From the NCBI RefSeq assembly GCF_963921235.1, contig NC_086108.1, forward strand, positions 5,952,001-6,016,000: DNA of 64,000 bases, read 5' to 3'. Source of the stretch: Mobula hypostoma. Its lineage: Eukaryota. Shown one piece after another: positions 56,168-61,783 of this stretch (position 1 is the stretch's first letter; each line of letters starts with the position of its first letter). Below the pieces are notes generated by a model. It did not search any database. It had not been told where the DNA came from and saw only the letters and a list, made by a program, of their open reading frames with translations. The translations under genes and the position numbers were made by a program.

Positions 56168-56334
56168 GTGAGGGAACACCCGAGTAATAGGGGTATAAAC
56201 TTGCCCTGATTGAATATGTTTATGGGTGGATTATTGAGAAAGACATTGCTAGAATAAAGTTGAATGAATTATTCCATATCGAGGCTGACAACCAAAAGGA
56301 AAAACTTCCATTCATATTGGCACTTTTCGTGACC

Positions 56335-59040
56335 TCTAGATGTCCCAAACCAAGCATATCAAGACTACCACTGTGAGAAGTACATCCAGCTGCAGCTTCC
56401 AACAATCCACCTTAAAGAGTTGGAGCTAGAATTGGATGAACTCTGAATCGTTCAGCAGGCTGACGGGGTGATAGCTAAGACATATAGAGAGATAGTTACA
56501 CCCAAGGTGCAGGACACAGAAGAGTGGGTAAGTGGAAGGGGAAGGGGATTAAGGAGTCAGTGCAGAGTGACATTCCCCTCAATAACAGGTATTTTACTGA
56601 GGATACTGTTGGGGGGGTGGTGACCTAACAGAGGAAAGTCATAATTATTGGGTCTCTGGCTCTGTGTGTCAGAAGGGAAGGGGGGAGAAGAGGCACGCTG
56701 TGGTGACTGGGAATTCGTTAGTAAGGGGAATGGACAGGAGGTTCTGTGGGTGAGGATGAGATTCCTGGATGGTATGTTGCCTTCCTGGTGCCAGGGTCCT
56801 AGACATCTCGGACCAAGTCCTCAGCATTAAGTTGGAGGGTGAACAGCCAGAAGTCATTCGTGTAGGTGCCAATGATATGGGTAGGGCGAATGACAAGATT
56901 CTGCATGGGGAGTTTAGGGATTTAGGTGTTAAGTTAAAGGGCAGGACCTCCAGGGTTGTGATCTCAGGATCGCTACCCATACCACACGTTAGCGAGGCCA
57001 GAATTGCGAAGATTCTACAGTTTAATATACGGATAAGGATTTGGTGCAGGAGGGAGGACATAAGATTTTTGGACCATTGGGTTCTCTTCCAGGAAAGGTG
57101 TGACCTGTACAGATGGGACGATTTGCAACTGAACTGGAGGGGGACTAATATCCCAGCAGGAAGGTTTGTTAACGCTGCACCATGAGGTTTAAGCTAGGGT
57201 TGCAGGAGGATGGGAACCAGTGTGCAGAACAGTTAGTGGAGAGGTTCTGGAAGCAGATTTTGGTTTGACCTCAGACAAATTCAGGAATCAAAAGGTTGAG
57301 CATGGTGTGACTGATGTCCTGAGCTGCAAGAAGTATCGTAGGAGAGGTGGATGATAGAGCTGAAGAAGAGGTAGCTGACTTACAAACAGAGGCAAAGTGT
57401 AGTGAGGTCCGGCTGTTGATAGGGCAAAACCACAGTCAACAGGATGAGTTGCGATGCAAAAGGCGGACAAAATCGAATAGAAGACCGAAAGTGTTATATT
57501 TCAATACGTGCTGTATATGGAACAAGGTTGATGAACTTGCAGCACAGTTGCAGATTGACATGTATGATGTAGGCAGCAATGAATCATAGCTGAAAGAAGA
57601 CTGTAGCTGGGTGCGTCAAGTTCAGGGATACACATTGTATTGAAAGGACAGGTAGAAAGGCAGAGGGGGTGGCGTTGCTCTGTTTGTAATAAAATAAAAT
57701 AAAATCATTAGAAAAAGGTGACAAAAGGTTGAAAAGTGTTGAAAAATTGTGGACAGAGCTAAGGAATTGCAAGGGTAAAAAGACCCTGATGGGACTTGCA
57801 TACAGTACCCCAAATAGTAGTAAGGATATGGTCTACAAATAACAGCGGGAGGTAAGGACAATGTTACATTAGTCATGGGGGATTTCAATATACAGGTAGA
57901 TTTGGAAAATCGGGTTGGTGCTGGATTCCGGGAGGGGGAATTTCGAGAGTGCCTACAAGATGGCCTTTTTGAGCAGCTGATAGTTGAGCCCACTAGGGGA
58001 TCAGCTATTCTCGATTGAGTGTTGTGCAATGAACCAGAATTAATTAGGTAGAGCTTAAGGTAAAAGAACCCTAAGGGCCAAGTGATCATAATATGATCGA
58101 ATGCACCCTGAAATTTGAGAAGGAGAAGTTAAAGTCAGATGTATCAGTAATACAGTGGAGTAAAGGGAATTACAGAGACATGAGAGTGGAGTTGGCCAGA
58201 ATTCATTGGAAAAGAACACTGGCAGGGATGACAGCAGAGCGGCAATGGCTGGAATTTCTGGAAGCAATTCAAAAGGCACAGGATGTATACATCCCAGGAA
58301 GGAAGAAGTATTCTATTGGAAAGATGACATAACCGTGGCTAACAAGAGAAGTCAAAGCCAACATAAAAGCTAAAAAAGTGCATATAATAGAGCAAAAATT
58401 AGTGGGAAGGTAGAGGATTGGGAATCTTGAAAACCAACTGAAGGCAACTAAAGAAGTCATTAAGAAGGTAAAGATGGAATACAAATGTAAGCTAGCCAGT
58501 AATATTAAAGAGGATACCAAAAGTTTCTTCAGATACATAAAGTGTAAAAGAGAAGTGAGAGTGGATAATAGACAGCTGGAAAACGACGCTGGAGAGGTAG
58601 TGATGGGAGACAAGGAAATGGAGGATGAACTGAAAAGAATTTTGCATCAGTCTTCACTGTGGAAGACACTAGCAGTATGGTGGAAATTCCTTATGTCAGG
58701 GATCATGGAGTGTGTGAAGTTCTTGGGAAACAGAAAAGTCTGAAGGTAGATAAGTCAACTGAACCAGATGGTGGACACCCCAGGGTTCTGAAAGAAGTGG
58801 CCAAAGAGACTGTGAAGGCATTGGTATTGATCTTTCAAGAATCACTAGATTCTGGAATGATTCCACAAGATTGGAAAATGTCACTGCACTCTTCAAGAAA
58901 GGAAACTATAGTCTGACCTCAGTGGTTGGGAAGATGTTGGAGTCGATTCTTAAGGATGAGGTCTGAGGGTACTTGGAGGCATATGATAAATAAGCCATGG
59001 TCAACATGGTTTCCTCAAGGGAAAATCTTCCTTGACAAAT
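56335..59040 (+). mobile_element. Old degraded CR1 (ORF1 esterase, APE, part of RT) in an ALKBH6 intron
   Basis: VCCLPGARV..GAND..ISGSLP; decayed APE and RT motifs. Confidence 0.88.
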
Positions 59041-61783
59041 CACTAAGGACCCCATCACCCAGGACAGGCCCTGTTCTCATTGCTACCATCAGGGAGGAGG
59101 TGCTTAACAATTCAGGAACAGTTTCGTCCCCTCTGCCATCCAGTTTCAGAATAGACATTGAACCCATGAACACTACATCACTACTCTTTTCTCTCTTTGC
59201 ACAACTGATTTCATTTAACTTTTTACATATATACTTGCTGTAAATTACAGTTTTTATTATTATGTATTGCATTGTACTGCTGATGCATGACAGTAAATTT
59301 CACGACATATGCCAGTGATATTAATTCTGATTCTGGTTTAAACAGAAATCTAGCATCTATTCATTTCCATTTCCATGCTTTTGTGTTTGATTAACACAAC
59401 CTTTATGTTTCTCCATTAGTTTCTGTTGTGCTTTCTTTCCTCTGCACTTCCTGGTCTCTCGTTTGTATCACTCGTATTCACTAGTTCATTCTCTGTTTCA
59501 TTTTTATGTATCCTCTTCACAATCTTCCCCTTCAATGTACGTGTGAGAAATAAAGATAATCTCGATTGTTTAGTTATGGTTAAATTGGAGGTTGACAGGT
59601 TATTGATTAGTCAGGGCGTGAAAAGTTACAGGAGAAAGCAGGATAAAGTGGTTGAGAGGGATAATAAATCAGCCGTGATGTAATGTAAAGCTAACATGAT
59701 GGGCTGATTGGCCTTATTCTGCACTGATGTCAAATACTGTTTTATTTCAGCTTCCTCTCCCTTAGCTTAATTGTAGTCAATGGGATATAAAGAGGCGATG
59801 CAAATATAAATTACTACTGTATTTCTTTTACAGCACTGTCTTTCCTGTTTTCTTCTCTTTACTGCTCTTTCTCCTTTATATTCAAAGATTCATTTATTGT
59901 CAGAGTATGTATGCGGTATACAATTCTGAAATTCTTCTCCTCTGGATGGCCACGAATCAAAGTAAACCTTGGAAGTCATTCAAAGAGAAATAGCAACTCC
60001 TCCCCCCCCCCAACCGCACAACAAGCACAGCAACACAATCATTAACTCCCAAAGCCCCCTTCACTGCACAATATGTCAGAAGTATACTGGACCCCAAATA
60101 TCCCTCTTCCCGCATGAAAAGATAAACAAAATCTCAACAAGGACATTTTGCCTTAAATCCCTTCTCCCTGCACATAAAAAAACCGAGAAAGAACAGGCAG
60201 AAACATGGAGTATAAAACTCTGTAAGACTGAAAAAAGTCCATAGGCCAAACTCATATCTATATCCATATCAATAAACGCAAAAAGCCTCAGTGACCTCCT
60301 CTGGGCACAGCGACAGTGATATATTTTACCACAGCCACCCCTTTCTCCTACTCACTACTATCTTCTGGGTTAGTGCTGAGTGGTGTTTGTCCATTGATGA
60401 CTGGAGATCTGTATGAGAGTTTTCTATAAACTGGGAAAGCTGTTGCACTGGGGCAGTTCTACTCTCAACTTTGGAAGTCGGGGTCCAGTGGCATGAACAA
60501 GTGTCACAAACTGGGGTCTTCCTTGGTTGCAGTGGATGACCATGATGTCTTCTGTGCCTTGTCATGCCTTTTGCTCTGCACAGACCATTGCAGAATGGCC
60601 TTCCTGGTTGTTGGACCTCACTGTAGATCTCATCCAACCAGTCCACTTGAGCTGTCTTCACATGCGAGGACAGGCACATCCCTATTCCATCGGGGTATGA
60701 GTCCCGCCGGCTACCCTAACCTGCTTTAGCCCGTCTGTTGAAGCTACTTGGAGCCACGGGTGAGAGCAGAGTGTGCGGTGTGCATGGTTTTCTAATAAAT
60801 AGTTCCTAATACAGGGATATATTTTATATATAATATATATTTATTTATATCTAAATTCATGTAAAATCAAAGAGGGCAGATTATTGTTATTTGTTAAATG
60901 TATATCGAGACATACAGTGAAATATGTTTATGTCGATGACCAACTATGTGCTGGGGGCAGCCCACAAGTGTCACCATACTTCTGGTGCCAATATAGCATC
61001 CCCACATCTTACTAACTGTAACCTGCACAGCTTTGAAATGTGGGAGGAAACCCACGTGGTCAACGTACAAACTCCATGTGCTGGGTGGCGATGACATTAC
61101 ATGCCCACTGTTGTAACTATGAACAAAGTCACTGGAAAAGACACTGAAGTGGTGGATATGGAAGCCTTTATTCTAGCAAACCGAGTATGCAGTCATCATA
61201 TTTGAGAAGTCTTGGAAGAAGAGACCTCTTTGACCCAATATTACACAACATTTTTATATGCTAAAGAGCAAAGGTAACAGCAGAACAATTCTATAGTTAC
61301 AATGTGTCTACAATGCTTCCTTTCAATTACATACTTTTTTCAAACTCCTCCTTCTTCGTACCCTTACTCCAGACACCCAAAATGACCCTGGGCTGCATTC
61401 ATGCAGATGCTGGCACCTGAGTTCAAGTAGAATGTTCCTTTGTTTGTGATTGAGCCCAATCTGCAGCTCCAGGAAGCCCATTATTCTGAGCTGTTTTAAA
61501 TTCAATCTGCAATCCACATTCAAATCTGAAAATTGGTTGCTAGTGAAATTAATATTTGCTATATATCCTAACTGCAGAATACACCCTAACACCCACAACT
61601 CACTAACCCCAACCTGGACGTCGTTGAACTGTGGGGGGAAACCCATGTGGTCAATGTAGAAACTCCTTACAGACAGCAGCAGGAATTGCTGGGGCTGTGA
61701 AGCGTTACACTAACTGTGCCAAATAGCCTAGATTTTATTACTGAGTTGTTGTGTGAAACCAGTTTTTGTTTTTGTCCTTGTAG

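Follow-up and report, generated by a model that had tools for sequence, protein, structure and literature searches.

We analysed a 64,000-nucleotide stretch of Mobula hypostoma contig NC_086108.1 (positions 5,952,001 to 6,016,000), here called the window and numbered from its first letter. Its forward strand carries three exons of ALKBH6, from which an expected fourth, exon 5, is missing. The main elements are as follows.

47650..47718, forward strand: ALKBH6 exon 3 (human numbering, assigned by correspondence), 69 nt, phase 0/0, reading APATVYY...LLQQ, with intact ag and gt
56107..56167, forward strand: ALKBH6 exon 4, 61 nt, phase 0/1, preceded by ag and ending TGG G before gt
56168..56192, forward strand: 25-nt alternative-donor extension of exon 4, taken up in Mobula birostris and Hypanus sabinus by the isoform X1 models that RefSeq gives for intact ALKBH6
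56168..61783, forward strand: 5,616-nt interval without the 152-nt exon 5, the exon of the Flip2 loop and the Asn-x-Tyr strand
61784..61894, forward strand: ALKBH6 exon 6, 111 nt, phase 0/0, beginning PHEDG and containing the HxD motif

The ALKBH6 origin of these exons is clear. They are identical to M. hypostoma ALKBH6 at 78 of 80 residues (23/23 in exon 3), exon 4 agrees with both Mobula proteins at 20 of 20, and exon 6 matches human ALKBH6 (PDB 7vjs residues 113-145, E 7e-12). All three have canonical splice sites, and the introns of 8.4 and 5.6 kb between them are kept. A first-pass annotation made from the sequence had described exon 4 as ending in phase 1, exon 6 as starting in phase 0 and the flanking splice sites as intact; the coordinates and the human match bear it out on all three, and both exons are real. 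It had also called any loss recent, which fits the 79 of 80 exon residues found in at least one of the four intact stingray proteins compared. Only the Gln at position 27 of exon 6 occurs in none of these four, and skates carry Gln there too. These matches assign the window to a myliobatiform ray. The isoform X1 models of M. birostris and Hypanus use frame +1 for exons 2 to 4, and this frame is free of stops in the two species and in the window; exons 3 and 4 with the 25-nt extension, read in that frame, agree at 48 of 48 residues with XP_072130573 and at 46 of 48 with XP_059841055.

Exon 5 should encode 50 residues (152 nt counting the split codon), and the segment is present in 181 of the 183 proteins that have both flanking motifs, the exceptions being the Hypanus ‘like’ model and a minor isoform of a ground squirrel. 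The first-pass annotation had noted about 50 conserved residues as missing, and we find none of them in the window. A six-frame search of the whole 64 kb with an exon-5 profile built from 117 peptides gave a best score of 0.7 bits, against 51.5 and 51.4 bits for the control profiles of exons 3 and 4. The Mobula exon-5 peptide aligned to the window with a score of 41, where shuffled peptides gave 36-48 and the peptide against itself 268. Nine 10-residue tiles of exon 5 reached at most 6/10 anywhere in the window, whereas six of six control tiles reached 10/10; a frameshifted remnant is thereby excluded as well. The possibility left open earlier, that an exon had simply been overlooked, falls away, since motif scan, tblastn, profile, local alignment and tiles together rule out a missed or displaced exon 5 in the window, which contains no N.

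Direct splicing of exon 4 to exon 6 shifts the frame, as had been predicted, and runs into a stop at 61882-61884, with 10 nt of exon 6 remaining. Any splice product of this copy lacks the Flip2 loop and the Asn-x-Tyr contacts to 2-oxoglutarate. In human ALKBH6, Flip2 spans G62-P76, and N103/Y105 were mutated together with R218 in a test of 2-oxoglutarate binding, according to the available part of that report (PMC8892091). The start-codon exon (exon 2), whose absence the first-pass annotation did not mention, was not found in the 47.6 kb upstream by profile, local alignment or tiles. The window extends 2.1 kb past exon 6, and the exon or exons of the distal His and Arg may lie beyond it.

The interval between exons 4 and 6 is rich in repeats, as first described, and contains one cryptic exon that the earlier annotation passed over.

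56340..56527, forward strand: cryptic retroelement-derived exon, 188 nt, flanked by ag and gtaagt, phase 1/0, with TGA at 56444-56446
56340..59039, forward strand: decayed CR1-type long interspersed element (LINE), cut at the start of its reverse-transcriptase part; start approximate
59039..59335, forward strand: 3' end of another repeat family, unnamed, that adjoins the CR1; alignment with three further copies in the window begins at 59039
59580..59722, forward strand: 3' terminal fragment of CR1 type that may be the end of the element at 56340..59039

A phase 1/0 exon encoding the missing peptide was looked for in the whole window and none was found. The cryptic exon has the right phase and would restore the frame between exons 4 and 6, but it holds a TGA. 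Over 63 residues it is identical at 50 to the filler of an ALKBH6-like model of Hypanus, where the stretch is open. With exon 5 absent and no continuous frame by direct splicing or through the cryptic exon, this copy does not have the makeup of a functional ALKBH6, and the non-functional copy proposed earlier is supported.

Likeness of the element at 56340..59039, which we take to be of the CR1 family, to other copies in the window stops at 59039, about 1.25 kb short of the end of the copy at 4093-5561. This is suggestive of 59039 as a candidate deletion junction. The CR1 3' end at 59580-59722 may, however, belong to the same element, so exon 5 need not have lain at 59039. Repeat-mediated loss of the exon is plausible.

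Four of the 23 runs listed were compared with the window over 55900-62100, all as contigs. None is registered as RNA; X1 and X11 are presumed to be RNA. The comparison was made at likeness 90 and was swamped by repeats, so that 15 of 1,591 joints are listed, with 40 of the 187 variable positions and 32 pieces of some 171,700; stretches left uncovered carry no weight. Spliced ALKBH6 sequence unlike that of the window is present in the RNA-type runs of the best-matching organism. X11 holds a contig of 1,131 nt (depth 17) whose listed piece matches the window only at exon 6 (61783-61894, record positions 460-571) and differs from it by three changes in 111 nt. One of these, G>T at 61864, turns the window CAG (Gln) into the CAT (His) of the intact stingray proteins; a second, placed at 61798 from contig breaks, is synonymous. 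The 460 nt upstream of exon 6 in this contig fit 336 nt of intact coding sequence and 124 nt of untranslated region. Furthermore, the depth of X11 in the exon-4 bin implies 64 matched bases, that is 61 plus the G-N-G opening exon 5, where a splice from exon 4 to exon 6 would give 61. In run X1 both types occur at 61864, T making up 25.5 of 83.4, and the T type alone almost accounts for the depth over exon 4, with 72 bases implied.

In the DNA run X2, eight listed pieces differ from the window at 20 of 2,291 bases, and organism B differs at 67 of 2,159. The divergence from the window amounts to 0.9% in introns and 2.7% in the exon. Relative to organism B, the changes at 56329 and 61759 are private to the window and those at 56304 and 56332 to X2. 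Pieces identical to the window confirm the flanks of the interval as real sequence.

RNA with the letters of the window is also present, in a form that does not look like an ALKBH6 message.

61152..62100, reverse strand (probable): putative antisense transcript, unspliced across exon 6 and running on beyond 62100 (X1 records 6-8; X11 records 14 and 16)

In X1, window-identical contigs extend from 61152 to beyond 62100 at a depth of 53-78, compared with about 3 in intron pieces listed elsewhere. They do not explain the exon-4 depth, and this RNA stops short of exon 4. The window-identical pieces of X11, from 61156, show no difference in 506 nt (chance 0.012 at average divergence). Contigs end 11 and 15 nt past a minus-strand AATAAA (61172-61167) that is followed by a GU/U-rich tract (chance about 0.02-0.04). 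Contigs carry no strand, and X1 and X11 belong to one study; ends placed just past such a signal nevertheless make an antisense 3' end probable. Window-type RNA is thus most likely the 3' end of a polyadenylated antisense transcript ending near 61153, and not ALKBH6 message. It would be complementary to exon 6 of the working mRNA at 108 of 111 nt. The region holds no convincing open reading frame (the longest ATG frame, of 107 aa, lies within repeats), and none of the contigs listed is spliced RNA of the window type.

Intact ALKBH6 proteins of 237-239 residues are found in both Mobula species, Hypanus sabinus and Hemitrygon akajei. A loss of exon 5 shared across the stingrays was dropped as an explanation on finding the intact Hypanus, Hemitrygon and Mobula proteins. 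H. sabinus has the intact XP_059841056 and the exon-lacking XP_059839526 on contigs of equal size (114,876,599 nt), and H. akajei the intact XP_072919923/4 and the partial XP_072919925 and XP_072918559, again on contigs of equal size (116,352,110 nt). We read the equal sizes as meaning that broken and intact copies share a chromosome. In XP_072918559 the HxD motif carries an Asp-to-Tyr change and the sequence following exon 6 is altered; this model has a Lys-to-Thr change in common with the Hypanus ALKBH6-like copy. In the electric ray Narcine bancroftii, the tail of isoform X2 (XP_069765065, residues 182-203) is exon 6 read out of frame (19/22), pointing to a probable second copy of exon 6 downstream. 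In these rays, then, an intact gene is commonly accompanied by broken partial copies. On whether they arose once or repeatedly, the protein alignment gives mixed signals, some copies resembling their own intact gene and two sharing the Lys-to-Thr change. ALKBH6 lies on sequences of 12-20 Mb in skates and sawfish and of 95-118 Mb in Narcine and the stingrays; the larger sequences, in the same species that have extra copies, fit a chromosome fusion. Recurrent partial duplication at ALKBH6 in rays did not come up in the literature: no paper combines ALKBH6 with elasmobranch, and none of the 10 listed of 15 papers on ALKBH6 and pseudogene is relevant by title. The accessible text of a manta preprint (10.64898/2026.10.27.761883) does not mention ALKBH6; its supplements may bear on duplications.

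Taken together, we favour the view, with a probability of roughly 0.6, that the window copy is a young, unprocessed, partial duplicate pseudogene of ALKBH6, the functional gene of this myliobatiform ray being located at another place. As in an unprocessed pseudogene, the introns are kept, and the assembled sequence shows a disabling lesion. A young segmental duplication would have copied part of ALKBH6, probably minus the promoter and start exon, and the redundant copy would then have lost exon 5 by a deletion ending within or between intronic repeats. The exons would be clean because the copy is young, not because they are selected. We infer the separate source locus, the age of the copy and the mechanism of the deletion, and an intact parent locus on the same haplotype has indirect support from the different spliced mRNA and from the relatives. 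The first-pass annotation had proposed a pseudogene or null allele. Its non-functional copy is supported, and the duplicate that it did not consider is favoured by the different spliced mRNA and the stingray copies.

Several observations weigh against a duplicate. The working locus is deduced from the mRNA and the relatives and is not seen in this assembly, and no Mobula ‘ALKBH6-like’ model is among the matches listed (120 rows in each of three listings). That the spliced mRNA includes exon 5 is deduced from arithmetic, not read from contig letters, and the 460 upstream nucleotides in X11 would equally fit an exon-5-skipped form with a 276-nt untranslated region. At 61759 and 61864, X2 has only non-window letters (12.7 of 12.7); with a fixed duplicate a single type would not be expected, although variants can be lost in contigs. 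None of the listed contigs crosses the deletion interval; the 56167-61784 joint, in either form, is not among the 15 of 1,591 joints listed, which is uninformative. The absence of exon 2 could also reflect a long intron.

Because no listed contig crosses the deletion, two other explanations keep some probability. The sole ALKBH6 locus on this haplotype may have lost exon 5, the mRNA coming from the other haplotype of a heterozygous animal. Such a null allele is unlikely, yet it deserves real weight: a polymorphism predicts both types in X1 and the non-window type only in X2, as observed, and the window and X2 each have private changes relative to organism B. The divergence of 0.9% in introns and 2.7% in the exon would, however, be high for alleles of a ray; no heterozygosity figure for rays came up among the papers listed. 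Since its stop lies so near the end of exon 6, a directly spliced message might escape decay, but the listing holds no spliced contig of the window type. The absence of exon 2 from 47.6 kb would be left unexplained, and two other stingrays have broken copies on the same chromosome as the intact gene. A collapse of the assembly between intronic repeats, dropping exon 5 from a working allele, is distinctly improbable. It would suit an interval that no listed contig spans and in which DNA pieces leave seven holes (3,162 of 5,616 nt, mostly in repeats), but a working allele should give mRNA with window letters, and the spliced contig differs at 3 of 111 positions. In addition, window-type RNA is unspliced and stops short of exon 4, window-identical pieces confirm the flanks of the interval, and the window has no N gap.

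Loss of ALKBH6 from the species or lineage, leaving a unitary pseudogene, is very hard to credit. In its favour, exon 5 is also missing from the Hypanus ALKBH6-like model, which has the retroelement in common with the window, and a precedent is reported from poultry, in which ALKBH6 was not identified according to the part of that article available (PMC12249364). Set against this are the intact proteins of Hypanus, Hemitrygon and both Mobula species and the expressed spliced mRNA with the conserved His. The different mRNA, together with the pairs of intact and broken copies in two stingrays, makes loss from the species unlikely, and other-type spliced mRNA, presumably complete, is not what a unitary pseudogene leaves. 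Just as remote is a new function, gained through the retroelement exon restoring the frame or a start in frame +1 entering exon 6. The cryptic exon has strong splice sites and a fitting phase, an ATG at 56111 opens a reading in frame +1 that continues into PHEDG without a stop, and a human variant joining exon 4 to exon 6 with a different N-terminus is described in the available text of PMC13026028. The TGA at 56444 in the window argues otherwise, as does the Hypanus filler model, which no longer matches Pfam 2OG-FeII_Oxy_2 while the intact Hypanus protein does. The human 4-to-6 variant is itself predicted inactive in the accessible part of the same source (PMC13026028), and no window-type spliced RNA is listed.

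We thus return to the young duplicate. The absence of the exon is real and its explanation ordinary; ALKBH6 does not appear to have been lost. For annotation, a clean but exon-deficient ALKBH6 in rays should not be counted as gene loss, and stingray ‘ALKBH6-like’ models may be padded with retroelement sequence. Were the copy instead a common null allele, or the loss true, it would offer a natural test of whether the nucleotide-sanitising activity of ALKBH6, reported in the accessible text of PMC12494543, is dispensable. More speculatively, and quite doubtfully, ALKBH6 may lie in a stingray duplication hotspot where partial copies independently lose exon 5, with the antisense RNA of the window regulating the working mRNA in trans and the Hypanus retroelement exon replacing the lost one in frame.

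Elsewhere in the window no host gene besides ALKBH6 was found, the 90 open reading frames of at least 110 aa looking repeat-derived or spurious by eye, and Rfam gave no match. Young CR1-type copies, about 96% identical, lie at 7747-9387, 12620-14112 and 51213-52853, and two of these contain reverse-transcriptase frames 467-469 codons long. Two further LINE families contribute long frames interrupted by single stops (33115-34692 and 39938-41544), and a tandem array at 45981-46184 has about three copies of a 71-nt unit.

Among known copies, the closest likeness is to the Hypanus sabinus ALKBH6-like protein XP_059839526.1 (228 aa), which is also without the 50-residue exon, an absence known from its gene model and not from its DNA. 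The model plugs the gap with the retroelement stretch that matches window 56340-56527. Unlike the window copy, it has exon 2, omits exon 3 and has an open filler where the window has TGA; it is also more decayed, differing from the window at 7 of the 57 residues in exons 4 and 6. Two valines are common to this model and the intact Hypanus gene, and orthology with the window copy therefore does not follow. The Hemitrygon models XP_072919925.1 and XP_072918559.1 have no exon 5 either, and unlike the window they start at exon 6, with no upstream exons.

Human ALKBH6 (PDB 7vjs) belongs to the same family with the same exon content, its HxD motif lying in exon 6; relative to that protein, the window copy lacks the residues equivalent to about 63-112, including Flip2 and N103/Y105. 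The human variant v.6 (junction 4/6), as given in the accessible part of PMC13026028, probably skips this exon too, reaching PHEDG from a different frame, its 163 aa fitting 126 + 37 if the exon is correctly identified. Unlike the window copy, however, v.6 is a minor splice form of an intact gene, and not a deletion in the DNA.

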